Assembly (NCBI GenBank): GCA_024409055.1
Contig: JAKSUL010000005.1
Coordinates: 6,636 to 70,635, forward strand
Length of the DNA: 64,000 nt
Source: Bacilli bacterium
Lineage (GTDB): Bacteria > Bacillota_I > Bacilli_A > RFN20 > CAG-826
Direction: 5' to 3'
In this document: positions 12,387 to 36,650 of the stretch, piece by piece
Layout of the letters: every line of letters begins with the position of its first letter
Numbering within the stretch: the stretch's first letter is position 1
The notes under the pieces: model-generated
Seen by the model: only the letters and a program-made list of their open reading frames with translations
What the model was told of the DNA's origin: nothing
Database searches by the model: none
Position numbers and translations under genes: made by a program

Positions 12387-13742
12387 TTAGTAGTTATTGA
12401 CGAGGGTAACGCCAGTCGGAGTGGTTGGAGTCTCCGGATAAGTGTCGTTATATCCACCACAGAAAGAAGTGATGCCAACAATCTTTGGAAGATCGGAGGT
12501 CCACTGCTTGAATACCTCGACTGTGACGTTTTGGAAGTTGACGTTGGTGGCTTTAGTCCTAGAACCGAAGATGTTGTTGTAGCCGATTCTAACTTTGATT
12601 GTGCAATCCTTGATGGTTGACTTCTCATCGATCATGTCTCCGACGAAGATGCCGTTTTTATTGCCGGCGACTGTCGTCGGAAGAGTGTCTCCGTAATGGA
12701 TAACGTTGACACCTTCGATTGTGGCTTTGAAGACCTGGGTTGCGATCATGCAGGCTTCGCCCATGGCTTGATGGACACGGGTAGAACTTCCGTTGGAGCA
12801 GGTGATATCGAAGTTTTTGACAACGCCACCCCTTCCGATGGATCCGAATAAACCAGTAGAAACGAAGGTGATATCGTCAAATACGTGGTCTTGGCCATCG
12901 AAGGTTCCGCGGAAGCCTTTGTCTCCATTCCATCCGCTGCTAACCGGTTTTCCGGCATAGCTCAAGTCGCTATCTCTTTCGTTGATGGTGCTACCGTTAA
13001 GGTTGACATCTCCAGTCATGACGAAATAGCCACCGATGTATTTTCCGTCGACAACAAATGGGTGAGTTTTTCCCTGCGCTGTCTTGCCATTTCCAGCTTC
13101 GTTGGTCCAGTGGACATAGCTGAATTGCTTTGCAGTCGCAATCTCAGCGGTAACGAACAAAGAAGGAACGGTGAATGTGTAGTTTTCTCCGCCGAGTGCC
13201 ATAGTAACATCGACGTTATTTTCACCGATGAACTGTCCATAGGCAGCGGCCGGGATAGCCAACTTTCCGCCGGCCATTGTGGTTCCGGTTAAAGCGGTCT
13301 CTCCAACCTTGGCGGACACAAATGTGCTGCCAGTCGGAAGAGTCGGAAGATTGATTTCGGCATTTTCGGTTTTAGCAACAAAGATGTTGTTGGTTTCGTC
13401 CCAAGAATACTGGACAACAGACTGTTTCTCCATCGTTCCAAGCGGAGCGATATAAGCCGGGTTTTCTGCATTCCAGCCGACAACTTTGCTGAAATCGGTG
13501 TTGGTCCAGCTTCCTTCAACGAAACTAGTGAATGTTTCGTGGCACTTGCAGCAAGACCAGAACTCATAGTGGCCAGACTCTTCGTTGGTCGGTCCTTTAG
13601 CGGCATAGTGATTGCCGATGTGGCTGCAAGGAGTATCGCCAGCAACAAACGGATTGGCGATAGCATTTCCAGCGGCAGCGGCAACACCGACGGTGCCAAC
13701 CATCGATGCGGACAAAGCGACGAGTAATACTTTCTTTTTCAT
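12387..13742 (-). CDS. Secreted protein, paralog of 14906..16660: one Cys-rich module plus a beta-helix-like FDGxGH tail
   Basis: Signal peptide MKKKVLLVALSASMVGTVGVAAAAG; AGAGGA RBS. C-terminal ~250 aa align closely with the 584-aa lipoprotein (GFRGTFDGQDHVFDDITFVSTGLFGSIGRGGVVKNFDITC...). Confidence 0.8.
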   Translation of the reverse strand: MKKKVLLVALSASMVGTVGVAAAAGNAIANPFVAGDTPCSHIGNHYAAKGPTNEESGHYEFWSCCKCHETFTSFVEGSWTNTDFSKVVGWNAENPAYIAPLGTMEKQSVVQYSWDETNNIFVAKTENAEINLPTLPTGSTFVSAKVGETALTGTTMAGGKLAIPAAAYGQFIGENNVDVTMALGGENYTFTVPSLFVTAEIATAKQFSYVHWTNEAGNGKTAQGKTHPFVVDGKYIGGYFVMTGDVNLNGSTINERDSDLSYAGKPVSSGWNGDKGFRGTFDGQDHVFDDITFVSTGLFGSIGRGGVVKNFDITCSNGSSTRVHQAMGEACMIATQVFKATIEGVNVIHYGDTLPTTVAGNKNGIFVGDMIDEKSTIKDCTIKVRIGYNNIFGSRTKATNVNFQNVTVEVFKQWTSDLPKIVGITSFCGGYNDTYPETPTTPTGVTLVNNY

Positions 13743-13772
13743 ATTATTCCTCTTATAAAAATTTCTAATCTT

Positions 13773-13789
13773 ACTCTATGTAATAGAGT
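13773..13789. repeat. Perfect inverted repeat ACTCTAT-GTA-ATAGAGT upstream of the 451-aa gene
   Basis: Read directly. Lies 31-47 nt upstream of ATG 13742 (minus strand). Confidence 0.6.
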
Positions 13790-13796
13790 GAATGCC

Positions 13797-13810
13797 TGCA
13801 AGCGCTTTCC
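13797..13810. promoter_or_regulatory. cre / LacI-family-type operator candidate TGCAAGCGCTTTCC
   Basis: Matches the core of WTGNAANCGNWNNCW except the flanking W positions. Lies 55-68 nt upstream of ATG 13742. Confidence 0.45.
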
Positions 13811-13850
13811 TATTATTTGCATAGAAGTAAAAAAGTTTCGTAAAAAAATG

Positions 13851-13882
13851 AGAAAAAACGCCTCTTTCGGGGCGTTTTTGGG
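13851..13882 (-). terminator. Rho-independent terminator ending the long minus-strand operon
   Basis: AAAAACGCC (13854-13862) pairs with GGCGTTTTT (13871-13879). On the minus strand the stem is followed by a T-rich tract. Confidence 0.85.
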
Positions 13883-13902
13883 TAAATTATGCAAATTTTT
13901 GC

Positions 13903-14880
13903 TTATTTTTTGAGGCAGAGATTGATCAAATCGTCGAGTTTTGCGGTGGCAAGACATTCAACCGTGTCAGCCGCTCCATAATAGATCTTCACTTCTCCAT
14001 CATCTTCCAGGATCATGCCACCCGGGAAGATAACATCGTTGCGGTATCCTTCTCTCTCGTAAGGAGCCTTTGGCGCAAGAATCGGCAATTTGCTGAAGCC
14101 AATGACCTTGCTCGGATCCTTTAGGTCAAGAAGCATTATTCCGGCGTAGTAGATCTTTTGCCATTTCTCTTCCCAACCGTTCTTTCCCCTGTTCGGGTCA
14201 AGTTCGACGGCGTGGAATGTGGTTAACCAGCCTTTTTCCGTCTTAATTGGCGGCGCGGCCGGTCCGATTTTGTTGTTGCAATAAGGGACTTTTTCGGCGC
14301 CAAGAACAAGTTTGGAATTGCCCCAGTATTTAAGATCAGCGGAATCACTCATCCAGATGTCGAAATAGTCTCCGCCGCGAGAATATACAGGGAACGGCCT
14401 CTCTAAACGCACGTACATGCCATTTATCTTTTCAGGGAATAAAACCATGTTGCGGTTATCGGGGACGCTCATGGAGATCACTTCGACTCTTTCAAAGTCT
14501 CCGATGACCTTTCCGATGCCGCCTCTAACGCCGTGCTTCGTATCAACGGCAAAGCAAATGTAAATCTCGTCGTCGATGACGGTAAGGCGAGGATCGTACA
14601 TCCTTTCGATCTCATCATCATGCATCTCAAAAGCCGGTTTATCGTTGGGGATCCAATGAATTCCGTCTTTGCTTCTGGCAACGCCTAAGTTAACTCCGCC
14701 GATGCCGACTTTGTTGATGGGTGGGTAACCCAAATAGTCGTTGCGGAAAACCATGTAATACGTGCCATGGTATTTGATAACGCCGGCATTAAAAATCAAG
14801 GCAGCGTTATATGAGATGTCTTTTTTGGATAGGATAGGATTTTCTTCCGCTCTAACCAAAAGAGGAATTTCTTCGAACAT
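13903..14880 (-). CDS. GH130 family beta-mannoside phosphorylase/hydrolase
   Basis: FNAGVIKYHGTYYMVFRND, YDPRLT, PIKTEKGWLTTFH and KIYYGAADTVECLA blocks are typical of GH130. The subfamily cannot be assigned by eye. Confidence 0.9.
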   Translation of the reverse strand: MFEEIPLLVRAEENPILSKKDISYNAALIFNAGVIKYHGTYYMVFRNDYLGYPPINKVGIGGVNLGVARSKDGIHWIPNDKPAFEMHDDEIERMYDPRLTVIDDEIYICFAVDTKHGVRGGIGKVIGDFERVEVISMSVPDNRNMVLFPEKINGMYVRLERPFPVYSRGGDYFDIWMSDSADLKYWGNSKLVLGAEKVPYCNNKIGPAAPPIKTEKGWLTTFHAVELDPNRGKNGWEEKWQKIYYAGIMLLDLKDPSKVIGFSKLPILAPKAPYEREGYRNDVIFPGGMILEDDGEVKIYYGAADTVECLATAKLDDLINLCLKK

Positions 14881-14905
14881 AATAGAATCTCTTAAAACAA
14901 TTTGA

Positions 14906-16660
14906 TTAAGCCGGCATTACAACCGTGATTCCGGCAGGAGCTTCAGTGCAGGTTGGATAAGAATCGCTATTTCCACCATAGAAATTTGTAATTCCGCGGA
15001 CCGGATCAGCGCTGTATTGCTTCCAAACTTCGACGGTAACGTTTTCGAATGTGACAGAGCCGGTCGTCCTGGTTCCGAAGATGTTATGGTAGCCAGACCT
15101 GACTTTGATATAGCAATTTTTCACAACGGAACGAGCGTCGATCATATCGCCGACGAAGATGGCGTTATGGGTATTGGCGCTGACTCCGTCATCTGCTCCA
15201 GTATGGACAACGTTGACGTTTTCGATGGTAGCGGTATAAACCTGGGCGGCGATCATGCAAGCTTCGGTCATTGCCTGGTGGACTCTAGTTGAATACCCGT
15301 TGGTGCAAGTGATGTCGAAGTTTTTGATGAGGCCTCCTTTACCGATGGCACCGAACAAGCCATAAGCGACGAAAGTGATATCGTCGAATTTGTGGCCTTG
15401 GCCATCGAAGGTACCGCGGAAACCTTTGAGGCTGTTCCATCCACCACTCTTTGGCTGGCCGGCATAGCCTAAATCGCTATCCCTTTCATTGATGGTTCCA
15501 CCGCCGGCGTTGATGTCATCGGTCATCACGAAGTAACCGTCGATGTATTTATTTCCGTTTTCTTCTTTGACGAACGGGTGAGCGCCACTAGATTTGGTAT
15601 TTCCAGCATCGGCTTCGGAAGTCCAATGGATGAAGCTGAACTGTTTGGCAGTAGCGACTTCGGCAGTAATGAATTTGCCTTCGGCCATAACCTTGACGTC
15701 GCAGCCTTCAACAGTGAATGTCGCCTCAACGTTTTTGGTTTCGCCTAAATAGTTTTCAATAGCGGCAGCACCAACGGTGACGACTCCGTCAGCGAAAATG
15801 GCACCAGCAATTGAATCCGTTCCGATCTTAAGTCCTTTTAGGGTCGCGCCAGTCGGGAGACCCGGATAGGATAAACCGGCGTTTTCGTTAGCGACGTATT
15901 TGCCGGCATCTCCATCGAAAACATACTCAGCAACAGATTGAGTGCCTTCAACTTTGGCGTTGATGTCTTCGTGACCAGTGCCTTTATGTCCGCAGGCGCA
16001 TTTCCATTCATACTTTTCGCCAGCCCCATCCAAGATGTATTTATGATCGTGGGTTTGGGTTAAGTGTTCACCGCAAACGGAGCAAGTGGTCCAGTGAGTA
16101 GTGTCATCGCTTTCGTAGTGTCCGTCTGAGACGTGCTCGCCAAGAGGGATTATCAATGAATCGTAACTCACTTCTTTCTTTGTCGAATCGAAGTATTTGC
16201 CGCAGTCTGCGCAGTGATAATGACCAAGCATGCCGGTGTGTTCACAAGTTGCTTCAATCTCTTCAACCCAAGATCCGTATGTATGATCTTTGGTGACCGA
16301 CGGATCGGTGATTTGGTGCTTGGCGCTAGCGTCGCTAAACATCTTTTCGCAAACATCGCAGCTCCAGTATTCAATATTGCCCGGAACTTCGCACTGTGGG
16401 ATAACGGCGTCGTGATGAGTGAGGGCGTGAGCTCCAATCGGAGTAACCAAATCCTCAAGGGTCGTCTCCACTTTTTCTTCAGTGAAAATGAGTTCGCATC
16501 CGCTGCAGGAATAGTAACCCTGCATACCGGTTGTTAGGCAGTTGCTAGCAACCGCGTCATGATGAACGTAGTTGTGTTGGTGTCCTCCGCAGGAAGCAAG
16601 AGTTCCTGAGGCAAGAACAAGAAGAGCAGGAATCGGCAAGACTTTGGATAGTTTGTTCAT
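14906..16660 (-). CDS. Surface lipoprotein: four Cys-rich modules plus a beta-helix-like FDGxGH tail
   Basis: Lipobox LASCGG; AGGAGG RBS. Modules such as HHDAVASNCLTTGMQGYYSCSGCELIF and HHDAVIPQCEVPGNIEYWSCDVCEKMF. Tail GFRGTFDGQGHKFDDITFVAYGLFGAIGKGGLIKNFDITC. Confidence 0.85.
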   Translation of the reverse strand: MNKLSKVLPIPALLVLASGTLASCGGHQHNYVHHDAVASNCLTTGMQGYYSCSGCELIFTEEKVETTLEDLVTPIGAHALTHHDAVIPQCEVPGNIEYWSCDVCEKMFSDASAKHQITDPSVTKDHTYGSWVEEIEATCEHTGMLGHYHCADCGKYFDSTKKEVSYDSLIIPLGEHVSDGHYESDDTTHWTTCSVCGEHLTQTHDHKYILDGAGEKYEWKCACGHKGTGHEDINAKVEGTQSVAEYVFDGDAGKYVANENAGLSYPGLPTGATLKGLKIGTDSIAGAIFADGVVTVGAAAIENYLGETKNVEATFTVEGCDVKVMAEGKFITAEVATAKQFSFIHWTSEADAGNTKSSGAHPFVKEENGNKYIDGYFVMTDDINAGGGTINERDSDLGYAGQPKSGGWNSLKGFRGTFDGQGHKFDDITFVAYGLFGAIGKGGLIKNFDITCTNGYSTRVHQAMTEACMIAAQVYTATIENVNVVHTGADDGVSANTHNAIFVGDMIDARSVVKNCYIKVRSGYHNIFGTRTTGSVTFENVTVEVWKQYSADPVRGITNFYGGNSDSYPTCTEAPAGITVVMPA

Positions 16661-16687
16661 ATATCCTCCTTTTTATATTTATAAAAA

Positions 16688-18508
16688 TTAGTCGACGTAA
16701 TTAATCTTCACGCCTGAAGCGGAAGTATGCGGAGCGGTGTCTTTCTCCTCGTAGTATAGCGAAGCGACCTCTTTGGCGTTGATGACAACGTTATTGGAAG
16801 AAGCGACGTTAAATCCGTTATTGCCAAAAACATTGGCGATGCGAAGGCCGGCGGCGTTGATTGTGATGTTTGTTAAGGTCGACTTAGCGACGGTTCTAGA
16901 AGCAACAATGCCGATATCGGTGCTTTGATAATTCATTGTTGCGCCCATATTTATCGTAACGTCCTTAATGGTTCCGCCTAATACGTGAACCGCGATTATG
17001 GAACAATACGAATTATCGAAGACAACGGCATTGTCAAAAGTGATGTTTTTTACAACGCCACCAACTCCAACAGATCCAAGCAAGCAGTTTTGAGAGCCCT
17101 TGAAGGAAATGTTTTTAATTGAGTGCCCCATACCGTCCAACATTCCGATAAAGCCATATTTGTCGTTATAAGAATTGTTGCCAGGCTGAGAGAAAGTGTG
17201 AGCCGAGCAGTCGATGTCGTTGGCCAAGACATAATAGCCGGCAATATTGACGGATTTGGTGATATCAGCCCACCCCGGCTCGCGGCGATAACGAATCGTT
17301 TCCAAATCATCCGCGTTCCTCAAGAGGAGAGAATATGGGTTAACCGTCGTGTCGTAACGACAAGTCGAGGTATAAATCGATAACGGGCTTTCAGACTTAG
17401 CCTCGCTAGCCTTCAAAAGGGCTTTTGAACCAGTCAAAGAAATATATTTGCTACCACGATCATATGAGGCGGCCACATTTTGGCCATCCCACAAAATCGA
17501 TTCAACGTCCCCACTTAAAGTGGCCGGGACATAAATATTGTTATAGCTACGGTCGAGTTCCATATCGAAGGTTCCGCTTAATTCTCTGACCGATAATCCG
17601 ACGTGAACATTAACTGTAGCGGTCGTCAAAACCCCGGCGTTGACGCTGGAAAGCTTAATTCCGCAATTACCAGTTTTTTGGGCCGTGATAAGACCTTCGC
17701 TAGTGACACTAGCCACGCTCGGATCCAAAGACTCGTAAGAAATCGTGGCCCCTTCGATCTTCGTGCCGTTTTTGTAAACTCCGGCATGCATTTGAACGGT
17801 TGAGTTTTGATCTTCCGCATCGAGGGTATCCATATCGATGTTGAATCCTTCTTCGACAAGGAAGACAGCGCCCTTAGCAACGATTTTCACATTGATCTCT
17901 TTGGCGACTTGCTTCCCATAAATCGAAGCTTTGACGTTGATCGCGGCTTCTCCGATATTTAAAGCGGAAATGGTGATGTTTTTATTTACGCTAACGTTAA
18001 CTCCGGCGGTAGTCGGATCGCTGGAAGTCGCGGAAATCTCGGCTTCGCGAGTAACGTCTTCGCCTTTATATAAAAGCTTTGGCTCGATGAGGAAAGATTC
18101 GTCATGGAGAATGGAGACTTCGCTTTCTCCAACTTCCAAAACCGGCATATTTCCCTTGTCGGAAACCGATGTCTTCAAAGTCCTTTTTTCGCCGCCAACA
18201 TTGACGACGATGTTACATTCCCCATCAGTTCCGTAGGAAGAAACCAAACCGGTTTCGTTAACATCGGCAATACTCGGATTGCTCGAAGTGAAGGTCACGG
18301 TCCCTTCGTAATTGGTTTTAACAACCAATTGGAAAGAATCGTATGTGTCCAAAACGATGTTATCGGCGTTGATGCTGACATCCCACATCGCAGAAGATAC
18401 CGAGGAGGTCGGGGCGTTATTACCGCAAGCAGTAAGCGAGGTAAGGGCTCCGCCTACTAAGAAAGTCGAAGCTAATGCTAGAAGCAATCTGTTCTTTTTG
18501 TTCTTCAT
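16688..18508 (-). CDS. Surface lipoprotein: three Big_2-type Ig-like domains plus a beta-helix-like tail
   Basis: Lipobox LTACGN; AGGAGG RBS. Big_2-like blocks VTFTSSNPSIADVNETGLV and ISYESLDPSVASVTSEGLITAQKTG. Tail GFIGMLDGMGHSIKNISFKG..LLGSVGVGGVVKNITF. Confidence 0.85.
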   Translation of the reverse strand: MKNKKNRLLLALASTFLVGGALTSLTACGNNAPTSSVSSAMWDVSINADNIVLDTYDSFQLVVKTNYEGTVTFTSSNPSIADVNETGLVSSYGTDGECNIVVNVGGEKRTLKTSVSDKGNMPVLEVGESEVSILHDESFLIEPKLLYKGEDVTREAEISATSSDPTTAGVNVSVNKNITISALNIGEAAINVKASIYGKQVAKEINVKIVAKGAVFLVEEGFNIDMDTLDAEDQNSTVQMHAGVYKNGTKIEGATISYESLDPSVASVTSEGLITAQKTGNCGIKLSSVNAGVLTTATVNVHVGLSVRELSGTFDMELDRSYNNIYVPATLSGDVESILWDGQNVAASYDRGSKYISLTGSKALLKASEAKSESPLSIYTSTCRYDTTVNPYSLLLRNADDLETIRYRREPGWADITKSVNIAGYYVLANDIDCSAHTFSQPGNNSYNDKYGFIGMLDGMGHSIKNISFKGSQNCLLGSVGVGGVVKNITFDNAVVFDNSYCSIIAVHVLGGTIKDVTINMGATMNYQSTDIGIVASRTVAKSTLTNITINAAGLRIANVFGNNGFNVASSNNVVINAKEVASLYYEEKDTAPHTSASGVKINYVD

Positions 18509-18517
18509 AACTCCTCC

Positions 18518-20470
18518 TTAATCGATTCCCCAAGATTTCCAAAGCGCGGTGATGCTGCCTTGTTCAAGATCTTGAGTGATTCCGAAATATTCGCAGTCTT
18601 TTTTGAACTCAAGACGGATGTTCCTAAGTTCAATATCGTTATATAAACTGCCGTGTAGCTTATAAAGGACATAGCGAGGGAAAAGCGACTCAAGATTGAT
18701 GTGATCGCAAAGAGTCTTGTAAAGGGATGGGTTACTGGCTTTGTATTTAGCGACTGCCTCGTAAGCGTTATCGATGGTTTTGAGCCAATCTTTAAGCAAT
18801 CCGCTTGGCCACCACTCAGTCTTTTCGATTAACTCATAGATTCCGCCGTTAAGCGTGCTCTCGGTCTCCTCGAGGTGAGTTTCCCATTGGGTCATTTGGT
18901 TGAAAAGTTTCATCATAATCGGGCTGGCTTCGCGGAAATAATTCTCAAAGAAGGTGTCACGCACCTCACCATATTTGACGCGAAGATCAAACTGAGCTTT
19001 GGAAGCTAAGTATTCCCTAAATCTAACAAAGGCGGTCGAAGCGGTGTTTTGACGAATGCCTTGGTTGTACATAAACGAAGCATTGGCATTTTTACAGAAT
19101 CTATAATTCTCAATGAGGTTCTCAAAAGAGTTATAGATGTACATATAGTTCTTAAAATTGCACTCATATAACCAAGTGCAGAGATGGTTGCAGATCTTTC
19201 CCCATTTGTTTACGAGGTTAGCGAGTTTAGCGTTATCCGGATGGTTGAATGACTTGGTGAACGCGGCGGCGATTGGGGCGACGATAACACCGACGTTTTC
19301 ATTTCCTTGGGTGTATTTAGACGGTTTTTCGCCTTCCGGAGCGGTCGGGGCGTCGATCGTGGCATTATAGGCGAAGAAATAGATGTGGAATCCAACACTG
19401 CCATCGCGACCAGGAATCTTTCCGGCCTTGATATCAGCCTGCAAACGATCGTCTAAATCGTTGACGAATCCCAAAATAGTCGAGGAGACAGAGCCGTATT
19501 TGGCAAGGAATCTATTGCATTCATCACAAGTACAGCAAGTTGGCGTGTCCTCCTGAGTAAAGGTGATGTTGTTCATGTTCGGATTGTCCGCAACAGCGAT
19601 TTTGAGTTTTTCATAAACCGTGTTGAGCATAGCTTCCCTTTCGGAATTATCGCCATGGGCCGTATAGCAGAGTTGCTGACTGGATCCGGCCGGGCCGCTA
19701 TACCAAAGAGGATGCTCGCCATAATAGGTGTCACTCGGCAAAACCTTCAAGCAGTTATGGACGCCAGCCCCACCGAAAGGAATGAAAAGGCTGCCTGAGG
19801 GGTTAAAGCCGGTTCCATAAATCAAATCAGTATTGGAAAGGCAGTTCGTGAAAAGACGATACTCAAAATCCGGACGCTCCGTGATGTCCATATCGGGAAG
19901 GGTGTCGCCCTTCTTTGTATAGATGACTGTGTCCTCGGAAATCATATCGTATCCGAGAACGGCGCGGAGGAAAGCCAAACCGGCTAAGTGGTAGCCTTCG
20001 GCCTTATTGGCGGCGATGAAGCAGTTGTTCTCTTTTGTTACGACGCGATATCCCGCAGACGCAAGGTTCAAGCCATCGAGTGAGAAGCCGGCTTCGGCAA
20101 ATTTATTCTCGCATCCAACGAGAATGTATTTATCGCCGCTGACTATTGTGCCGATCGACTCAACGGGAACACGTTCCAAATTGACTCCGGTAGCGCTAGA
20201 AATGCAGCCTTGAATATATCCGGCAGCTCTAGCGGCGGCTCCCTCAAGGGTCTCGCCGTAAACGATTTTGTATTCGCTATAGCCATTCTTGACGAAGGCA
20301 CGGACTTTGTTTTCGGTAATCTTTACATCGTGAAGAGTGTCAGAGGAAACCTTTTCGGTCGTAGGATCTTCAATGGCGTTTCCTTTTTTTGTCGGATCGC
20401 TAGAGCAAGCAGCTAAAGCAACAATCGAAGAAGCGGCGAAGATAAGTGATAGTAATTTTGACTTTTTCAT
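18518..20470 (-). CDS. Lipoprotein, DUF4838-like (glycoside-hydrolase-like) domain
   Basis: Lipobox LAACSS; AGGAGGG RBS. RPDFEYR and FTQEDTPTCCTCDECNRFLAKYGS...GFVNDL blocks match my recollection of DUF4838. The family call needs an HMM search. Confidence 0.6.
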   Translation of the reverse strand: MKKSKLLSLIFAASSIVALAACSSDPTKKGNAIEDPTTEKVSSDTLHDVKITENKVRAFVKNGYSEYKIVYGETLEGAAARAAGYIQGCISSATGVNLERVPVESIGTIVSGDKYILVGCENKFAEAGFSLDGLNLASAGYRVVTKENNCFIAANKAEGYHLAGLAFLRAVLGYDMISEDTVIYTKKGDTLPDMDITERPDFEYRLFTNCLSNTDLIYGTGFNPSGSLFIPFGGAGVHNCLKVLPSDTYYGEHPLWYSGPAGSSQQLCYTAHGDNSEREAMLNTVYEKLKIAVADNPNMNNITFTQEDTPTCCTCDECNRFLAKYGSVSSTILGFVNDLDDRLQADIKAGKIPGRDGSVGFHIYFFAYNATIDAPTAPEGEKPSKYTQGNENVGVIVAPIAAAFTKSFNHPDNAKLANLVNKWGKICNHLCTWLYECNFKNYMYIYNSFENLIENYRFCKNANASFMYNQGIRQNTASTAFVRFREYLASKAQFDLRVKYGEVRDTFFENYFREASPIMMKLFNQMTQWETHLEETESTLNGGIYELIEKTEWWPSGLLKDWLKTIDNAYEAVAKYKASNPSLYKTLCDHINLESLFPRYVLYKLHGSLYNDIELRNIRLEFKKDCEYFGITQDLEQGSITALWKSWGID

Positions 20471-20481
20471 AATTGCCCTCC

Positions 20482-23400
20482 TTATTTGCTGACATTGACC
20501 CTATAGACGACCTCTCCGATGTTGGAGGCTTCGTCAATGGCCATGATGTGGAATTCATAGACTCCGGCGTATTTAGCGACGATGGAGTTCTTTTCGTTTT
20601 CAAAATACAAGCGGATACCGTTCGGGTTAATGACGTATGCCCATACCGTCAATTTATCAGATGGGGTTACGTTATCTTTAACTTCGTACTCGGCTAGATA
20701 TAACGTGTCGCCGACCTTGGCGTTTTTCGCCGGTTCGGACTTCAAGGTGATTTCGGGCCTGGTCTCGTCGGAGACATTAACTAAGTAGGAGAAATCGGAA
20801 GCGTTATTCATTGCGTCGGCCGCTTTGTAATCGACAGTGTAATTGCCATATTGTTCTAGAACGAAATCATAAGAAGCAGAAGGCGAGACTTCGTTGAGCG
20901 TAACGCCGTTATTGTCGACAACATAGTTGCCTTTTGGATCCTTTACGGTCACGGTGAAGTACTTATTGTTTGGGAACAAGACGTCGAAGGCCGTGGCGGC
21001 GCAAACGTGATAAACGCTATTGATGGAATAGGATCCGCCATATGCACCCAAAAGGTGGATTTTCGGCCCAGTCGTATCTTTGACGGCGCTTGTGAATGTG
21101 AAGCCGTTTAAGGATTTGATAGTGAAGGATTCGCCGACCTTCATGTCGGTGTCTATGCGTAAATAGACCCTATCGCTATCTTTGAATTCGTTGACTAGAG
21201 CACCGCCGACATTGTTATCGTTGACCGAGAAAACGCCATCGACGAAAGCGAGCTTGAATTCATTGTTGCCATCCATCGTCAAAGCGGTCTTCACGGCGTT
21301 ATCGCCATAAGACAAGATCGCACCGCCATCGACTTTGGTAAGGGTAGCAGTCACGCTATTTTCGAAATCATAGTAATCAAGAAGGGTCATGCTGATGCTT
21401 TCACCTTGTCTCATGCTGAAGTTCTTCAAAACTATCGCAACTTCGGAGGAAGACTGAGGCGTGATGAAGGTAAATCCACTATTGGCACCCGTGATAGCAA
21501 CATCAAGGGAGGTGTTGGTCGTGGTCATAGCCATTCCTTTAGCGTCAAAGAACCTTTCTTCTTTAAGCTGATTGATGATAGTTCCGTACATCGAAACCTC
21601 TTCGTAGACGTTCATAAGATAAGAGGTTTTGGTGGAAAGCGAGTATCCGTCATAGACAAATTCAAAGGTAATGACTTCCTTTACGTCGTTTCCTTTCGGC
21701 GTGAATTTGGCACCGCCTTGGTATGTCGTAGTTCCGGTCGAATCTGTGACGAGGACGTCAGCAACGCCTGTCTTACCGGTGCGATAATCTTTTGCGATCA
21801 AAGTCGGAACTTCGACTTCGAGATCCGAGATGTGATATGCCGGTATAACAGCGTCTTCATAAAGAGAAGGATGCGTGCTCTCGGTGACGTTGACGTTGAA
21901 CTCTTTGGCAGAAGAAGTTCCAACGAAATCGGTGACCGTGTAGATGATTTTCCAAATACCAACGCGTTCAAAGACAAAGGAGTTATTGATGATTTCCTTT
22001 TCGCCTTCAATCTCGGCTTCGACGGTGACGAATGTGTCTCCGCTTCCACCTTGGATATTCGTCGGGGTTGGCAAAACGATCCTCGATCCAACTTCGATCG
22101 TGGAAGGAATGCCATCTACGTCAAAGGTGATTGGATCAACTTTATCTAAGCAAGTGATGTAAAGAGGGCGAATCGTTTCGTTTCCGAACACGTCTTTGGC
22201 GACATATTCGATGACATATGAGCCAGGATATTTGGTTTGGATAACGCCATTAACGATGCTGACGCGAGTCTTATTGGCTGAGTTGTAGTCATACCAAGCT
22301 TTAGCCGTGACTTCGCATTGTCCAGAATATATGTCATATCCATAAGCGGTTGGGATTGGGTAAGAATAACCTGCGACGGCTTTAGGGAGCTTCGTGATGT
22401 CCTGTTCGAATTCGACGAGCGGTCCTTCGGAATCGCGGAAAGTTGATTCCTCGGCCGCCATCAATTCGTTGGCGGTATACCCGTACACTTTGGAAATGGC
22501 GAAATTGGCCGATTCACCAGCGATACCTTCGGCGGTGACGGAAAGACGCACTTTGTTCGATTTGAATCCCGGCCATCCTTTGGCGAAATAAGCCGGATTA
22601 TCAAGGTCGATGACCTGAGTATCGTGGAAGAAAAGAGCTTGGTTAGTTTGGTCGTAGTGAACTTCGAAGGTGCTTTCTGGAGCGTCGGCACCAGTAGGAA
22701 TCACTTCTTGCCTGATGGTTCCTGTGGTCGGATCCAAGAAAGCATGGCCGCGGAAAGCGGCGAAAGAACAACCGGCAGAGGTTCCGAATTCATCGCCTTG
22801 GTGAAGGGATCCCATACCGCTATTGTCGTAGTAGTTCCAGCCAGACAAAGGCTGATCGTTACCGGCTGCTTTAGCCCAAGCGGTTCCGCCTTCTGAATAG
22901 TTTTGGAAGACGAAATCGAAATAAGTATTCGCGTCGCTGGCATCAGTAAAACGGAAATAAATCTTAGTGAAGTCGTTGGTGCCGCGTGAATCAGGGGTCA
23001 AGAAGCCGTCAATTAAGATGTCTTCTTTGGTGAGGCTAGAGATATCGATGAGTTTGGAGAACGTCAAAGTGTCTCCCTTGGCCAAACGGACAAGCATGGC
23101 CTCGGTGTCTCTTCCTTTATATGGCTGATACGTGACTTCCGAATCATCGGACCTCGCATATTTATGAATTCCGTAAGTTACCGTGGTCTTGTCGCTATGC
23201 ATGATAGACGGGTAGTCGACCTTGAACGTTTTTTCTAAGGTCTTGGTAACGCCGGACACCTCAGCAAAATATTGGATTGTGTACTCCCCGATTTCGTTAA
23301 GGGTCACTTCGCTATCAGAGGTCGCGTTTTTGCTAGGATAAACAAAAGAGTGGGTAGCCGTGACAACGTTCGATCCGTTGACGTACATGGCATTAGGAAT

Positions 23401-23565
23401 CGAGAAGTCGGTGTTGTAGCGGTAATAGTCTTCGACTTGAACATCGGTCCATCCGGACGATTGGGCCGCGTTGATGAGACCGTAAGCACTGGTTCCGGCA
23501 TACGCCAAAGCGCCAAGACACGTCAGTGCCAAGGCAATCGTAATAATCTTGTTTGATTTTTTCAT
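20482..23565 (-). CDS. Large (1027 aa) secreted/anchored surface protein with repeated Ig-like (DUF5011/HYR-type) modules and a lectin-like central region
   Basis: N-terminal signal/anchor MKKSNKIITIALALTCLGALAYAG; AAGGGG RBS before ATG 23565 (ORF-track start 23604). Module endings recur: DVFGNETIRPLYITC, AADAMNNASDFSYLVNVSDETRPEI, AIDEASNIGEVVYRVNVSK. Confidence 0.8.
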   Translation of the reverse strand: MKKSNKIITIALALTCLGALAYAGTSAYGLINAAQSSGWTDVQVEDYYRYNTDFSIPNAMYVNGSNVVTATHSFVYPSKNATSDSEVTLNEIGEYTIQYFAEVSGVTKTLEKTFKVDYPSIMHSDKTTVTYGIHKYARSDDSEVTYQPYKGRDTEAMLVRLAKGDTLTFSKLIDISSLTKEDILIDGFLTPDSRGTNDFTKIYFRFTDASDANTYFDFVFQNYSEGGTAWAKAAGNDQPLSGWNYYDNSGMGSLHQGDEFGTSAGCSFAAFRGHAFLDPTTGTIRQEVIPTGADAPESTFEVHYDQTNQALFFHDTQVIDLDNPAYFAKGWPGFKSNKVRLSVTAEGIAGESANFAISKVYGYTANELMAAEESTFRDSEGPLVEFEQDITKLPKAVAGYSYPIPTAYGYDIYSGQCEVTAKAWYDYNSANKTRVSIVNGVIQTKYPGSYVIEYVAKDVFGNETIRPLYITCLDKVDPITFDVDGIPSTIEVGSRIVLPTPTNIQGGSGDTFVTVEAEIEGEKEIINNSFVFERVGIWKIIYTVTDFVGTSSAKEFNVNVTESTHPSLYEDAVIPAYHISDLEVEVPTLIAKDYRTGKTGVADVLVTDSTGTTTYQGGAKFTPKGNDVKEVITFEFVYDGYSLSTKTSYLMNVYEEVSMYGTIINQLKEERFFDAKGMAMTTTNTSLDVAITGANSGFTFITPQSSSEVAIVLKNFSMRQGESISMTLLDYYDFENSVTATLTKVDGGAILSYGDNAVKTALTMDGNNEFKLAFVDGVFSVNDNNVGGALVNEFKDSDRVYLRIDTDMKVGESFTIKSLNGFTFTSAVKDTTGPKIHLLGAYGGSYSINSVYHVCAATAFDVLFPNNKYFTVTVKDPKGNYVVDNNGVTLNEVSPSASYDFVLEQYGNYTVDYKAADAMNNASDFSYLVNVSDETRPEITLKSEPAKNAKVGDTLYLAEYEVKDNVTPSDKLTVWAYVINPNGIRLYFENEKNSIVAKYAGVYEFHIMAIDEASNIGEVVYRVNVSK

Positions 23566-23569
23566 AAAA

Positions 23570-24481
23570 TCACCCCTTAATTCCGCCGATAGTAAGGTTA
23601 CCAAGCAGTTTTTTGTGGAAAGCTAAGAATAGAGCAAGGGCCGGGAGCAAAATGACGATAGTAGCACCGGCTTTTTGTGGGATCTTATCTAGACCAGGCT
23701 GAGATCCGAAGATGACCGCGTTGTACATTTCATACGCGAGCGTGGGATAGTCCTTTAAATAGATAAGAGGGGTCTGGTAGTCGTTCCAGAACACGATGAA
23801 CTCAATGATGAAAACGGTGAGGAAGACGTTCCTTGCGAGCGGAAGTCCGATGCGAAGAAGAATCTGAGTATTGGAAGCACCGTCGATTTTCGCGGCTTCT
23901 GAGAAGGAATCGGGCATCGATCTGAAGTGCTCATAGAAAACCAAGAAGTACATTCCCAAGAAGGAGAACTTCAAAACCCAAATGAAGAACAGGTTGTTAT
24001 ATAGTCCAAAGAAGTTGACGACCTTGAACTCAGAAGGCTGGTTTCCGACAACCGGGATGGCCATTACGATGATTACGAGGGTGTAAATAATCGCTGAGCT
24101 CTTGAAACGATACCTAGCGCAAGCGTAAGCGACTAAGCAAGGAACAAGGGTTTTAACGACGCCGCTAGTAAGTGAATACCACAAAGAGATTCCGAATAGT
24201 TCAACGAACGAATATTTATGAATCTTTCCGTTCCAACGGCCAAGAATCGAAAGCTTATCAGCCGAGAAAAGGTCGCCGATGTTGAAGTGGAATTCTTCCG
24301 GCCAAGAGAAGGCTTTGGCGAAGGTGAATATTCCTGGATCTTGGAAAGAAGTGAACAAAGAGAAAAGCAATAGCCCAACCAGCGAAACGCTATAGATCGC
24401 AAGGACAACAAGCAAAACTATGGCAAAAATCGATAGGCGTTCTTTTGGTAAGTGATTTGACCTTTTAAGTGCAGTTTTCAT
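23570..24481 (-). CDS. Carbohydrate ABC transporter permease (CUT1, second membrane subunit)
   Basis: EAA loop EAAKIDGASNTQILLRIGLPLA and six hydrophobic helices. GAGGA lies 6 nt before ATG 24481; the ORF-track TTG start at 24487 overlaps the upstream stop. Confidence 0.9.
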   Translation of the reverse strand: MKTALKRSNHLPKERLSIFAIVLLVVLAIYSVSLVGLLLFSLFTSFQDPGIFTFAKAFSWPEEFHFNIGDLFSADKLSILGRWNGKIHKYSFVELFGISLWYSLTSGVVKTLVPCLVAYACARYRFKSSAIIYTLVIIVMAIPVVGNQPSEFKVVNFFGLYNNLFFIWVLKFSFLGMYFLVFYEHFRSMPDSFSEAAKIDGASNTQILLRIGLPLARNVFLTVFIIEFIVFWNDYQTPLIYLKDYPTLAYEMYNAVIFGSQPGLDKIPQKAGATIVILLPALALFLAFHKKLLGNLTIGGIKG

Positions 24482-24483
24482 GA

Positions 24484-25464
24484 TCAATCCTCACTCGGAC
24501 CATATTTGGTCAATAAATGGCGAATCACCAAAGTAAGCGGAACAGCAATCATGGTCAATACCAAGCCAATCGCCGATAGCGGGAACAAAGCCGCAGACGG
24601 TGTCATTTGATTGGCTTTGTCATAGACGTTAGAGAAGAACCAGTAGCCAAACGTAGAAAGGCTCGTCGAGTCTATTGCCCTAGAGCCAAAGAAAGAGAAG
24701 ACGTTATATTGGCATACAAACAGACCGGCGATACCAGTGATCAAGAACACGGATAAGGTCGAGAAAGTCTGAGGCAAAACAATCGAGGTGAATTCTCTCC
24801 ATTGATTAGCGCCATCTACTTTGGCGGCTTCCAAAACTTCGGTAGAGATAGAAGCCATCTTATTGGAGAAAAGAAGGACCGTGGTTCCGAAGTTAAGCCA
24901 AATATAGAAGAACATGACGGTCATGTATTGAGTTTTTGTGTCGCTTAGGAATCCACCGCCTTCAATAGTGACGTTGAACGTATTCTGCATAAAGGCCGCG
25001 AAAGAGGAATCGAACCAAATGAAGATACCGCACAAAACGACGGTTGAAATGATGGAAGGCAAGAAGAGCATGACCCTAAAGAACGAGGATCCGAAGAACT
25101 TCTTGAATATGTAATAGGAGAATAAAAGGGCAAGCGGGATGGATATCGCGTTGCAGATGAACCAGGATTTAACGGAGTTCCACATCAAGGTCCAGAAAGG
25201 AAGCGTAATAATATCGCTAGGATTTCCAGTCCAGTTTGGAGACTCTCCGCCGATCCAGCGGAAAACGTTAACAAAGTTATCGAAAGTGAATATCTCCGAC
25301 CTCACCCCACCTTCAATCGTGACTTTCTCAAAAGCCAAAACGAAGGAGTTGAAGTTAACGACCACGTAAAAGATGGCGAACTGAAGAAGAGGTAAAGCAA
25401 GGAGGGCGATGTAAAAACCAAGATCCTTGAGACTTTGTTTTTTTCGATTCGTCATTTTTGCCAT
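24484..25464 (-). CDS. Carbohydrate ABC transporter permease (CUT1, first membrane subunit)
   Basis: EAA loop EAAKVDGANQWREFTSIVLPQ; polytopic. Confidence 0.9.
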   Translation of the reverse strand: MAKMTNRKKQSLKDLGFYIALLALPLLQFAIFYVVVNFNSFVLAFEKVTIEGGVRSEIFTFDNFVNVFRWIGGESPNWTGNPSDIITLPFWTLMWNSVKSWFICNAISIPLALLFSYYIFKKFFGSSFFRVMLFLPSIISTVVLCGIFIWFDSSFAAFMQNTFNVTIEGGGFLSDTKTQYMTVMFFYIWLNFGTTVLLFSNKMASISTEVLEAAKVDGANQWREFTSIVLPQTFSTLSVFLITGIAGLFVCQYNVFSFFGSRAIDSTSLSTFGYWFFSNVYDKANQMTPSAALFPLSAIGLVLTMIAVPLTLVIRHLLTKYGPSED

Positions 25465-25482
25465 AAAACTTTTTCGCAGATA

Positions 25483-27171
25483 TTAGAGAAGTCCTTTGAA
25501 GTAATTCCAGGCAGTAACCGGGGAGTTGCTGTGGAAGGCGTTGATCGGGAAGGCGTAAGTCGTGGTACCGACCTTTGCGCGATAGGCGTTCGGCTCAGTG
25601 AATGAGTCTGGGCTCGCGGCATAGGTCGCAGCATGGCTATACGGGAAGATGATGTCGGTGTTTTCCGATTGGACGTAATTGTGCAAAGAACGGCCAAACG
25701 GAGAAAGCTCATTGAGTTCTTCCGGCGTCATCGTGTACTTGAGAGCCTTCATTGTGTTGGTGGATTTGGTATAGGCGACAAGCTCGTTATCGGAGTTCAC
25801 GAATTGGATGAACTTTTTGGCGGCCTGAAGTTTTCCATTCTTTAATTTGCTAGAAGCGAAGCACAAGGTGGAAAGGTTATCGGAGATCGTGTTTTTGATA
25901 TGGGCGTCAACATAGGACTGATTCGGGCGAGGGAGGTTCATCCAGCCGAAGTTACGTTTATTGATGCCATATTCAGAGCCGAAGCGGGCTTCCATATCGG
26001 TGAAGCAGCTCTTGCCTTCGTTCATAGCCCAAACACCTTCCACTAACATGGCGATGTCTTTGGCTCCGCTGGCTTTGGATCCCCAAATGAAATCCTGCTG
26101 GGCAGCTGTGTGGGTGTATCCGTTGTTATAACCGGATCCATTGGTCCAGTCGGAAGAATTTTTGACGATGGTCGAGAAGAAATCGAGGGCGTAGTATTTG
26201 CCGACTTGCCTCTGGACGTTGGCACGTCCGGCGACGCTATCTTCGATAACGACGCTCTCCAAAGAGGAAACTGGGACAACGCCGTCATCCGGTTCAGTAG
26301 CTGAGGTCTTGACCAAGTCGTCATCGGTTCCGTTGAGAGCATAGTTAAGCATCATCTTCTCGGATCCTTCGGCTTGTGTAACGAGGGCGTTAATGAAGGC
26401 GTTGGTGTAGTTGTAGTTACGATATCCGTTCCAAACAAGCGGGATAGCCTGTTTCTGAACGATCTGGCGGCAAAGCATGAAGAACTCTTGGTAGGTAGCC
26501 GGGAGTCCATCGTCTTCCGTATCGAAATATCCGTCAGGTCCAGTGCTCTTTTTCAAGACGGTTGGATCTGGATAGTTGCCGATGAAGTTCAAGCTTTCGT
26601 CAGCCGGATACGGCTCGCCGTTTCTATCGATGAAATAGAGTCCGTACTTGTCGAACAATTCAATGTTATAAATAAGGCCAGATCCGCCCATGTAGTGCGG
26701 CAAGGCGTAATAATGTTTGGAGCCACCTTCCGTAACACCGAGGAAATCTTCTTGGCTCTTGCTTAACTTGGAGGCGATTGTCTTGTTGTCGAACTCGCTG
26801 GTTTCGGTAACGATGTCCGAAATATCGGCGATGGCGTTGACGGAACGGAGCTCATCGTAGAAAGAGTGCTCGTGGAAGTAGACATCAAAATCTCCAAGGG
26901 CAATTTCTTGAGAGGAATAGCTCGTTTTCAATGGGTTGATTTGAATTTCAACGCCAGTCTTTCCTTCCTCAAAGGAGGTTTCGGCAAACTTGGCTTCGAA
27001 ACGTTCCTTGACGCCGTTAAGCCAATCGCTTCCGAATCCACCGTTATAATTAAAGACGGAGATTTGGGTTTTGGTGGAATCTCCACCTCCACCGCATCCG
27101 GTTAAAGAAGTAGCCAAAACCGGCAAAGCGGCAAGGGATAAAATCAAATGCTTGTTCAAAGTCTTTTTCAT
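25483..27171 (-). CDS. Extracellular solute-binding lipoprotein of a sugar ABC importer (large ~560-aa class)
   Basis: Lipobox LTGCGGGG; AAGGAGG RBS. It is the first gene upstream of two permeases. Confidence 0.85.
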   Translation of the reverse strand: MKKTLNKHLILSLAALPVLATSLTGCGGGGDSTKTQISVFNYNGGFGSDWLNGVKERFEAKFAETSFEEGKTGVEIQINPLKTSYSSQEIALGDFDVYFHEHSFYDELRSVNAIADISDIVTETSEFDNKTIASKLSKSQEDFLGVTEGGSKHYYALPHYMGGSGLIYNIELFDKYGLYFIDRNGEPYPADESLNFIGNYPDPTVLKKSTGPDGYFDTEDDGLPATYQEFFMLCRQIVQKQAIPLVWNGYRNYNYTNAFINALVTQAEGSEKMMLNYALNGTDDDLVKTSATEPDDGVVPVSSLESVVIEDSVAGRANVQRQVGKYYALDFFSTIVKNSSDWTNGSGYNNGYTHTAAQQDFIWGSKASGAKDIAMLVEGVWAMNEGKSCFTDMEARFGSEYGINKRNFGWMNLPRPNQSYVDAHIKNTISDNLSTLCFASSKLKNGKLQAAKKFIQFVNSDNELVAYTKSTNTMKALKYTMTPEELNELSPFGRSLHNYVQSENTDIIFPYSHAATYAASPDSFTEPNAYRAKVGTTTYAFPINAFHSNSPVTAWNYFKGLL

Positions 27172-35190: not shown

Positions 35191-36650
35191 AAAATAGATT
35201 CATTTTAGGTTTATTGATCACCTTTGCCCTTTCTTCTTGTGGCCAACAATCACCCGTTTCTTCTGCCCCAGAAAGTGCGGTCAGCGAAAGCTCGTCTTCC
35301 CTTTCTTCTAGCGAAATAGAGAACAAGGCTTTGAAGTTCTTCTCCTCGAATTCATTGGGAACTCCAGTAGAACGCCCTTCTTCCCTACCTTCTTTCGCTC
35401 CAAAACTTTTTGACAAAGATTCACTATCGATAGAAAACTCCAGAAAACTCGGTGAAGGCGTTAACCATTTAGTTTATTCGTTCAATTTGAATTCCGGTAA
35501 TAACGTGAAGGCTAACGTCATTGCCGTCGACATGCAAAAAGCCTCTATTCACACCACTTCCGCCGGAACGATAGACACGGTAAATAATCAAATATCCGCC
35601 TATGAGACCGCTCATCCCGACAAAAAAGTCATGGCAGGCGTGAACGCCGACTTCTTCCCAACGGGAACAGGCGGCTCATGCGTCAATGCTTACGTCAAAG
35701 ACGGAAAGATCATCAAAGCGGGTCATAACGACAACGGCGTCTATGACTATAGAGATCCAGCAAGCGACGTACCGGCCTCTAACCCGATGCTGCTTGGTGT
35801 CGACTCAATACACGCCCGCATCGCTCCTATTGTCGAGAACAAAACAAAAGAGGAAACGATCAAGTCTAAATTCCAATACACGGTCTATTCATCGGACCAG
35901 CAAGACACCCCAAAGGAATTGGACGGAAAGATAACGTTCAACGCTTCCAATATAGGAACAGCCGATTACGACCTAGTAATCAACGGAACCAAGTACGTAA
36001 GCGAAGAAAATCAAACATTGGTCAAAATTCATTTGATCAATGATTCAGAAGCCTCCTTCGTCTACGGACAAGTCGAAGAAGTCAGAAAACTTCAAGGAGA
36101 ACGTATATCCACATCCTTGGATTTAGATAAAGGATATGTCTATCTCTTCGCAAAAGAAGGCGCCCAAAGGAAATTCGCCACTGGCGATTACGTTGGATAC
36201 GCCGCTAGAAATGACGATGGAAAATGGTTCGGATATTCAAACATCATCGGTGGTCGTCAATCATTGGTCGAACAAGGCGAAATCCCATCAACCGTCGCTT
36301 TGGAAAACACCAACGGCGCCCAAAGAACCAATATCCCACGTACATGTGCAGGCATAGCGTGTGATTCCACTTTATATGTAGTGGCAATTGAGGCGCTTAG
36401 ATACGGAAATAAATCCACGTCCACTTCCGACCCATACGGAGTTTCGCTTCCAGAGCTCGCCGAATTCATGCGTTACATCGGTTGTTACGAAGCCCTTAAC
36501 TTCGATGGAGGCGGATCAACTCAGCTCATCACTTCGGATAAAGACGGCACCGGAACGAAAACGCTAAGCGTCCGTAGCTCCGATTACGGCACATACGATG
36601 TCAACGAAGTCAGGAAGGTTTATAACACCCTCCTCATTACAACCAAATAA
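35187..36650 (+). CDS. Lipoprotein with a phosphodiester glycosidase (NAGPA/DUF2233-like) domain
   Basis: Lipobox LSSCGQ. The RTCAGI...GVSLPELAEFMRYIGCYEALNFDGGGSTQL block matches the family signature. ATGA overlap with the GDPD gene stop. Confidence 0.75.
   Translation: MKNRFILGLLITFALSSCGQQSPVSSAPESAVSESSSSLSSSEIENKALKFFSSNSLGTPVERPSSLPSFAPKLFDKDSLSIENSRKLGEGVNHLVYSFNLNSGNNVKANVIAVDMQKASIHTTSAGTIDTVNNQISAYETAHPDKKVMAGVNADFFPTGTGGSCVNAYVKDGKIIKAGHNDNGVYDYRDPASDVPASNPMLLGVDSIHARIAPIVENKTKEETIKSKFQYTVYSSDQQDTPKELDGKITFNASNIGTADYDLVINGTKYVSEENQTLVKIHLINDSEASFVYGQVEEVRKLQGERISTSLDLDKGYVYLFAKEGAQRKFATGDYVGYAARNDDGKWFGYSNIIGGRQSLVEQGEIPSTVALENTNGAQRTNIPRTCAGIACDSTLYVVAIEALRYGNKSTSTSDPYGVSLPELAEFMRYIGCYEALNFDGGGSTQLITSDKDGTGTKTLSVRSSDYGTYDVNEVRKVYNTLLITTK

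Follow-up and report, generated by a model that had tools for sequence, protein, structure and literature searches.

Predicted beta-helix modules at the tips of three surface proteins in a glycan-utilisation locus of a Bacilli bacterium

Within a 64,000-nucleotide stretch from a Bacilli bacterium of the CAG-826 lineage (assembly GCA_024409055.1, contig JAKSUL010000005.1, positions 6,636 to 70,635; hereafter the window), three minus-strand genes between positions 12387 and 18508 encode exported proteins with similar C-terminal tails. These genes lie in and beside a sugar-uptake operon, and the locus raises the question of what the tails are and what they do at the cell surface. The proteins were numbered P0001 (451 aa), P0002 (584 aa) and P0003 (606 aa). 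An earlier note, made from the sequence alone, had read them as a three-member family with beta-helix tails. Sequence profiles and structural models indicate that the tail is a right-handed beta-helix of about 220 residues and six to seven rungs, a diverged branch of the GLUG / Peptidase_M26_N / 3N6Z superfamily, and its role is probably that of a non-catalytic head that captures glycan or glycoprotein.

The three genes and their parts are listed below in window coordinates, with the evidence in brackets; the foreign-module hidden Markov model (HMM) is described in the next paragraph, and Ig stands for immunoglobulin.

12387..13742, minus strand: P0001 gene, 451 aa; signal peptide without lipobox, one Cys/His (ZBD-like) unit, Ig-like domain, predicted beta-helix tail (open reading frame call, BLASTP, profile)
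12390..13175, minus strand: P0001 predicted beta-helix tail, residues ~190-451 (foreign-module HMM, E 1.9e-42; 64% identity to the P0002 tail)
13173..13424, minus strand: P0001 Ig-like beta-sandwich, residues ~107-190 (homology to the modelled P0002 domain, residues 241-325)
14906..16660, minus strand: P0002 gene, 584-aa lipoprotein; lipobox LASC, four Cys/His units, Ig-like domain, predicted beta-helix tail (open reading frame call, BLASTP, AlphaFold2, profile)
14909..15688, minus strand: P0002 predicted beta-helix tail, residues ~325-584 (foreign-module HMM, E 3e-42; AlphaFold2 pLDDT 80.6, strands every 25-34 residues)
15686..15940, minus strand: P0002 Ig-like beta-sandwich, residues 241-325 (AlphaFold2 blocks of pLDDT 83-95; Foldseek Ig-domain probability <=0.97, with weak E-values)
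15956..16588, minus strand: P0002 Cys/His-rich repeat stalk, residues 25-235 (match to 9qa6_A residues 850-927, E 1.7e-4)
16688..18508, minus strand: P0003 gene, 606-aa lipoprotein; lipobox LTAC, Big_2/Ig-like stalk, predicted beta-helix tail; sixth gene of the cassette described below (open reading frame call, Pfam, profile)
16691..17356, minus strand: P0003 predicted beta-helix tail, residues 385-606 (AlphaFold2 pLDDT 89.5, pTM 0.89; Foldseek top match 3N6Z; foreign-module HMM, E 9e-45)
17357..18391, minus strand: P0003 Big_2/Ig-like stalk, residues ~40-384 (PF02368, E 9.4e-10; PF22359)

The P0001 and P0002 proteins were found to be 55% identical over 346 aa (BLASTP, E 2e-123), and their tails alone reached 64% identity. 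The earlier note had placed a similarity of well over half in the C-terminal ~250 aa; the level was confirmed, whereas the extent had been set too short, as the similarity starts about 90 residues earlier and takes in the Ig-like domain. By BLASTP, the P0003 protein resembles the other two in short patches, with 33% identity to P0002 over 58 aa (E 1e-6) and 28% to P0001 in a 58-residue patch (E 3e-5). A family profile was assembled from 132 modules cut from search matches and, to avoid circularity, rebuilt with the 129 foreign modules alone. The rebuilt profile matched P0003 at 9e-45, P0002 at 3e-42 and P0001 at 1.9e-42, over ~220 positions. It follows that the three tails are truly homologous, with a sequence similarity far beyond chance, and that P0003 does carry a more divergent version of the tail, as had been proposed.

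The family is not limited to three members, contrary to the earlier description. In the 1.78-Mb genome (97% complete), the foreign-module profile detected 13 open reading frames with 15 modules at E <= 2.6e-8, tandem modules being present in two of the 13, and a 14th open reading frame at 9e-5. The pairwise comparison of the tails was complemented by a maximum-likelihood tree of 22 modules, in which P0001 and P0002 were sisters (support 100/100) on a long stem, and P0003 fell into one group (84/84) with the cassette proteins from C11 and C34, two other contigs of the genome; support was poor at deeper branches. Five further module proteins, on contigs C4, C69, C75, C23 and C87, formed a separate clade in the same tree (100/99). 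Those of C4 and C75 lie outside the DUF4838 cassettes described below, and the C4 protein adjoins another set of solute-binding protein (SBP) and permease genes.

A profile of the P0001/P0002 alignment was also searched against 1.84 billion representative proteins. Of 282 matches at E <= 0.001, P0001 alone fell below 1e-30, and the remainder were chiefly large multi-module proteins aligned mainly at profile positions ~125-215. No close relative of this subtype was found in 24 species of the same genus (best E 2.8e-11, motif region only) or in a collection of 5.8 billion proteins, and a contig scan with patterns from the P0001/P0002 alignment gave 106 pattern matches and no confirmed relative. 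By these searches, the pair appears as an orphan, lineage-specific, locally duplicated subtype.

The fold of the tail was addressed by structure prediction and by profile search. The AlphaFold2 model of the P0003 tail reached pLDDT 89.5 and pTM 0.89, and Foldseek comparison with the PDB returned beta-solenoids throughout. The first match was 3N6Z (probability 1.00, TM 0.47), followed by a pectate lyase and by the M26 IgA1 proteases 6XJB, 6XJA and 7UVK (TM up to 0.40, probability 0.69); further matches were the serine-rich repeat protein (SRRP) adhesin 5NXK of L. reuteri (TM 0.34), pentapeptide-repeat proteins and designed solenoids. The A3 profile, comprising 36 modules headed by P0003 and including P0001 and P0002, matched 3n6z_A at E 2.7e-18 along profile positions 17-191. 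The smaller profiles A1 and A2 fell short of 3N6Z, so the link to this entry is transitive through GLUG-bearing relatives. The profile and the structure search agree on 3N6Z as the nearest entry, and the P0003 tail, as modelled, falls into the 3N6Z-type class of small beta-solenoids.

The model of P0002 residues 241-584 (pLDDT 80.6, pTM 0.85) showed an Ig-like sandwich followed by strands every 25-34 residues. Homology together with these periodic strands suggests the same fold for the P0001 and P0002 tails. The right-handed, GLUG-like beta-helix proposed earlier is supported by the P0003 model, by the 3N6Z match and by the position of the GLUG motif inside the homologous region of relatives; two outcomes named in advance as fatal to that proposal, a known enzyme family and a non-beta-helical prediction, were looked for and neither turned up. 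One detail was corrected. FDGxGH, taken for a periodic pattern, proved to be a single cap motif occurring once per module at the first rung, and the truly periodic element is the rung ending x-I-x-N/D-V-x-V.

Scans of P0001-P0003 and of the isolated tails with Pfam and NCBIfam returned nothing on the tails even at E <= 10. This includes GLUG (PF07581, a 28-residue motif with a membership cut-off of 20.5 bits), for which neither the proteins nor the tails gave a match, and Peptidase_M26_N (PF05342, cut-off 27.7 bits), for which P0001-P0003 gave none. Relatives found with the module alignment bear PF07581, PF05342 (its last ~100 positions only) or PF20200. Three module relatives, P0004 (36 bits), P0023 (28.9 bits) and P0186 (29 bits), pass PF05342, in each case only on profile positions ~143-250, and in GLUG-annotated relatives the 28-residue motif falls within the module-homologous region, at about the third rung. 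No relevant match to the tail came from sequence searches of the PDB, whether the query was P0002, profile A1 or A2, or one of the relatives P0004 and P0156, and P0001-P0003 matched no enzyme family in Pfam, NCBIfam or the PDB. A reading as M26 protease, suggested by the PF05342 matches and by the PDB title 'IgA1 protease', was rejected, as neither the catalytic domain (M26_C) nor HExxH occurs in the three sequences.

The nearest structural entry, 3N6Z (BACOVA_03286 of Bacteroides ovatus, 'putative immunoglobulin A1 protease'), shares with the window tails the small beta-solenoid and the cap motif (xxDID ... FDGxxHxIxNF ... FFG ... xNVxF), and the program ConSole relates its repeats to GLUG (PMC4021314). 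It differs in that it is a Bacteroidota protein of 363 aa with more distinct GGxxG (GLUG-like) rungs and no assigned function; the window proteins are Firmicutes-type lipoproteins with long stalks and degenerate rungs, at 14% identity in the structural alignment. GLUG proteins share with the window modules the rung pattern hydrophobic-x-x-G/A-x-I-x-N-x. However, P0001-P0003 have LLA, MIA or IIA where GLUG has GGLxG, and each carries one module, whereas GLUG proteins are often giant and multi-module. The N-terminal beta-helix of the S. pneumoniae M26 IgA1 protease (residues ~781-1070) and its Gemella homologue (6XJA, 6XJB, 7UVK; PF05342) are of the same fold class and size and non-catalytic. 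The protease helix, described as 'relatively small' and without protruding elements (PMC7695701), gates the active site within its own chain, whereas the window helix is the terminal head of a stalk; the M26 catalytic domain and HExxH of the proteases are absent from P0001-P0003.

All three proteins are stalks with the beta-helix at the membrane-distal C-terminal end, and the three open reading frames announced earlier were recovered with the predicted anchors. In P0003, the lipobox is followed by a Big_2/Ig-like stalk (PF02368) and the head; in P0002, by four Cys/His units, the Ig-like domain and the head; in P0001, a signal peptide precedes one Cys/His unit (residues ~38-75, 13518-13631), the Ig-like domain and the head. 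Lipid anchoring and surface exposure, as in surface glycan-binding proteins (SGBPs), are accordingly predicted for P0002 (LASC) and P0003 (LTAC), and P0001 has a signal peptide only.

The Cys/His units aligned to 9qa6_A residues 850-927 with Cys and His in register (E 1.7e-4) and are predicted to be zinc modules. The matching region covers ZBD1 of the Thomasclavelia ramosa M64 IgA protease, a putative zinc-binding stalk element near the cell-wall anchor with 2His/2Cys sites, dispensable for catalysis; ZBD1 and ZBD2 have been described as possibly a novel metal-binding fold (PMC12237041). As in P0002, the non-catalytic Cys/His repeats of that protease (9QA6) lie between the anchor and the functional domains. 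The T. ramosa anchor is a C-terminal sortase motif and that of P0002 is N-terminal, so the order is reversed; zinc binding is a prediction in both. A His-rich unit also follows directly after the lipobox in two other lipoproteins of the genome, at C56:32616-35375 and C34:47475-48827 (CGGTAHEHTYVAHPE..., CGG...DHAYVHHE). Two beta-helix modules stand in tandem in the C56 protein (919 aa), which is 42% identical to P0002 residues 24-87. From these two lipoproteins, the zinc-type stalk would be reused within the genome.

Neither PBP transpeptidase (PF00905), FtsW/RodA/SpoVE (PF01098) nor sortase (PF04203) was found in the genome at 97% completeness, and control profiles matched. The organism is therefore probably wall-less, which a surface proteome of lipoproteins would fit.

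The genetic setting of the three genes comprises the following features.

13854..13879, minus strand: intrinsic terminator hairpin and T-run, 3' of GH130 (9-bp GC-rich stem, -11.4 kcal/mol, z -2.6)
13903..14880, minus strand: GH130 beta-mannoside phosphorylase-like gene, 325 aa, without signal peptide (PF04041, E 7.9e-41)
18518..20470, minus strand: DUF4838 lipoprotein, 650 aa, of the GH163/GH185 catalytic-domain type; fifth cassette gene, 9 nt upstream of P0003 (PF16126, E 4.9e-40)
20482..23604, minus strand: Ig-like surface protein 'BIG', ~1040 aa; fourth cassette gene (operon annotation, synteny)
23570..27171, minus strand: SBP (562 aa) and two ABC permeases; cassette genes one to three (operon annotation, synteny)

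The operon runs on the minus strand from 29175 to 13903 and encodes a GH127-like protein, the SBP, two permeases, the 1040-aa Ig-like protein, the DUF4838 lipoprotein, P0003, P0002 and GH130, with a divergent AraC regulator at its head. The terminator, previously put at 13851-13882, was located as the stem at 13854-13879 with its T-run. It lies between GH130 and P0001, so that P0001 and P0002 flank GH130 as described, and it sets P0001, which has its own Shine-Dalgarno sequence AGAGGA, apart as its own transcription unit. A palindrome, GGAAAGCGCTTGCA (minus strand), is present at 13797-13810, between the GH130 terminator and the P0001 Shine-Dalgarno sequence.

Part of this operon recurs as a cassette with the gene order SBP, permease, permease, ~1030-aa protein, DUF4838 (GH163-like) and beta-helix lipoprotein. 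Four full copies were found in the genome, in the window and on contigs C56, C34 and C11 (the last one split); all six genes are paralogous between copies at 21-42% identity, and all four DUF4838 genes lie above the Pfam cut-off. The order was intact at seven of nine loci fetched around module matches in other species of the genus, as well as in the unrelated assembly GCA_054278415.1, where it stands beside GH106 and GH39 genes. P0003 is a standard cassette component, and P0002 and P0001 are additions specific to the window copy. A fifth cassette on C5 (14000-31366) consists of the SBP, two permeases, a ~1056-aa protein and DUF4838, with no beta-helix lipoprotein gene after the latter. In the L017 locus of GCA_054278415.1 (11884-14399), a called 46-aa gene directly after the beta-helix lipoprotein of the cassette overlaps the start of a 792-aa module protein, which is followed by a second DUF4838 gene.

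In GH163 and GH185, DUF4838 is the catalytic domain; the GH163 example BT1035 acts at the cell surface on complex N-glycans, in which it cleaves GlcNAc-beta1,2-Man (PMC10570127). A PDB search with the DUF4838 protein of the window gave no relative at the sequence level. For GH130 of the window, the nearest PDB relatives were TM1225, beta-1,2-oligomannan and beta-1,2-mannobiose phosphorylases, and UhgbMP. Because GH130 is nearest to beta-1,2-mannoside phosphorylases and DUF4838 is of the GH163 type, the operon probably handles a beta-mannoside-containing glycan. GH130 (13903-14880) and putative surface phosphodiesterases of the GDPD and NAGPA types (33304-36650) also bring to mind beta-1,2-mannosides in phosphodiester linkage, such as those of fungal phosphomannan, although as an idea only.

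Several known systems resemble the locus as a whole. Gram-positive polysaccharide utilisation loci (gpPULs) likewise join an AraC regulator, an ABC sugar importer, glycoside hydrolases or phosphorylases and lipid-anchored surface proteins. A gpPUL, as Sheridan and colleagues reportedly defined it in 2016, consists of one or more carbohydrate-active enzymes co-located with a carbohydrate transporter and a transcriptional regulator, and the window locus contains all of these (GH127-like, DUF4838, GH130; SBP and two permeases; divergent AraC). The beta-helix lipoproteins sit where, by analogy with gpPULs and the Bacteroides Sus-like systems, glycan-capture proteins would be expected, and their binding is putative. 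To our knowledge, the known surface glycan-binding proteins have Ig- or CBM-like folds, unlike the beta-helix head, and the gpPUL literature does not describe BIG, DUF4838 and the beta-helix lipoprotein as a fixed trio. The BT1033-BT1035 N-glycan locus of Bacteroides thetaiotaomicron also combines a surface DUF4838 enzyme with a short cytoplasmic GH130, presumably BT1033. In contrast to that locus, the window GH130 is nearest to beta-1,2-mannoside phosphorylases and TM1225 and not clearly of the N-glycan type, and the import system differs.

Conservation was evaluated in 13 heads, namely the four cassette proteins of the genome, seven from loci L017-L025, P0001 and P0002. Columns with at least 75% identity were confined to the cap and rungs 1-2, plus one later Gly. 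In P0003 numbering, they are T388, G424, Y425, L428, D431, F453, G455, D458, G459, G461, H462, G481, K487 and N488, together with two columns at which P0003 deviates, 456 (consensus T, P0003 M) and 475 (consensus G, P0003 C). No conserved polar, acidic or basic residue was present in rungs 3-7, and the search for pectate-lyase-fold catalytic residues that had been suggested likewise found none conserved on the helix body. The cap motif, GYYxLxxD ... FxGTFDGxGH ... GLFG ... IKN, is common to 3N6Z and to GLUG-bearing relatives of very different architecture, and the cap therefore most likely nucleates the solenoid.

An enzyme family is expected to keep its catalytic residues, and a re-targeted binding face is expected to vary. 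With conserved residues in the cap only, a non-catalytic binding head is the most likely interpretation, and it is also favoured because the rungs are variable and because, in the one relative that has been studied, the IgA1 protease of the pneumococcus, the beta-helix serves as a mobile gate without a catalytic role, the catalytic residues being in other domains (PMC7695701). The same domain class is found at the tip of predicted fibrillar adhesins (Monzon et al., PMC9210967). We thus infer, on balance and with a real margin of doubt, a non-catalytic capture head that would retain glycan or glycoprotein for DUF4838 and the SBP. The hypervariable rungs after the cap would form the ligand-binding face, and at the cell surface the heads would pick up a glycan or glycoprotein that contains beta-mannosides. 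The captured glycan would be held for the DUF4838 enzyme, and the products would pass to the SBP and ABC importer and then to GH130. Fold, homology, domain layout, gene order and the pattern of conservation were established here, and from them binding in place of catalysis, the ligand and any partner were deduced.

Several observations weigh against the capture-head interpretation. The Foldseek search with the P0003 tail gave no match at E <= 0.001. Confidence was lower in the model of the P0002 tail, in which two segments fell below pLDDT 50, and the Foldseek search with the 241-584 model gave weak Ig-like matches only, with no solenoid in the top 50. 3N6Z is itself an uncharacterised structural-genomics entry, and the ligand is guessed from neighbouring genes only. 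In the cap, the conserved D/D/H/K/N cluster might have a function in metal or substrate binding and not a structural role alone. Moreover, the beta-helix is the scaffold of many carbohydrate-active enzymes, and weak matches were obtained to pectinesterase (family profile, E 0.05-0.1) and pectate lyase (Foldseek probability 0.10).

The last point leads to the alternative that the head itself acts on carbohydrates, as a lyase, glycosidase or esterase built on a pectate-lyase-like scaffold, and would add another surface enzyme to DUF4838. PL1/3/6/9, GH28 and CE8 adopt the right-handed beta-helix, the proteins lie within a glycan-degradation operon, and polygalacturonases and alginate lyases accompany pectate lyases among the Foldseek matches. 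'Potential catalytic functions' have also been remarked for the domain class (Monzon et al., PMC9210967). The enzyme matches, however, stayed at probability <= 0.11 and TM <= 0.25, against 1.00 and 0.47 for 3N6Z, and no CAZy-type Pfam or NCBIfam match was obtained. The helix is short, without the protruding loops that form enzyme clefts (cf. PMC7695701). No Asp/Glu/Arg/Lys/His constellation is conserved in the helix body of the 13 heads, and the conserved residues lie in a cap shared with non-enzymatic relatives. A pectate-lyase-type enzyme was down-weighted for want of conserved catalytic residues, and an enzymatic head is regarded as unlikely. Another alternative is a protein-docking or gating subunit that would attach to the adjacent DUF4838 glycosidase (or to the ~1030-aa protein) and control its active site or bring substrate to it, as an in-trans counterpart of the gate of the M26 proteases; the homologous IgA1 protease domain contacts and gates the catalytic domains (PMC7695701). 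In the window, on C56, C34 and C11, at seven loci of the genus and in L017, the module gene stands directly 3' of DUF4838, with spacers of 3-10 nt or overlaps, and this invariable adjacency suggests stoichiometric co-production. Yet the C5 cassette has DUF4838 without a module gene after it, and the genes of P0001, P0002 and five or more further module proteins of the genome have no DUF4838 neighbour. Hypervariable rungs also suit diverse external ligands better than one conserved partner, and such a subunit is given a small chance.

A further alternative, in which the wall-less bacterium would use the proteins as variable adhesins or antigens for attachment to host mucus, host cells or other microbes or for immune evasion, with a loose tie to nutrient uptake, would account for a multigene family that is large for a 1.78-Mb genome in which no PBP, FtsW/RodA or sortase was found. 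The long stem of P0001/P0002 and their lack of close relatives among the 1.84 billion representatives and the 24 same-genus species would agree with this, as would the stalk-plus-tip architecture, which is like that of fibrillar adhesins (PMC9210967), and the SRRP adhesin among the fold matches. The conserved gene order with importer and glycosidase across species argues for nutrient acquisition instead. P0002 and P0001 flank a cytoplasmic phosphorylase in an AraC-headed sugar locus, and no phase-variation repeats or invertible elements were noticed, none having been searched for. An adhesin or antigen role is thus considered very improbable. A broader proposal must be called doubtful. In this proposal, the beta-helix lipoprotein would be the obligate specificity or presentation partner of DUF4838 (GH163-like). 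The two, the ~1030-aa protein and the ABC importer would constitute a fixed surface machine of six genes that has been multiplied and re-targeted among wall-less gut Firmicutes; P0001 and P0002 would be a newly evolved, zinc-stalked, partly secreted offshoot scavenging a beta-mannoside glycan. If true, the machine would match the Bacteroides Sus paradigm in function while being assembled from wholly different components.

The module represents a divergent offshoot of an established superfamily, and the orphan P0001/P0002 subtype with its putative zinc stalk is a small twist on it; the pair shows how fast the heads diverge. The GLUG / M26-N / 3N6Z beta-helix is among the commonest unstudied surface domains in gut metagenomes. 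For the domain cluster, ~350,000 MGnify homologues have been counted (Monzon et al., PMC9210967). The setting described here is unusually clean, with the domain in single copy as the tip of a lipoprotein, fixed beside a GH163-type enzyme and an importer, and multiplied in one small genome. We know of no member of this domain outside the IgA1 proteases with a known role. The clean single-copy setting makes the locus a tractable system for finding the ligand of the domain. Such a ligand would also reveal the means by which gut bacteria that are wall-less or Gram-positive take hold of complex glycans in the absence of Sus-type outer-membrane machinery.

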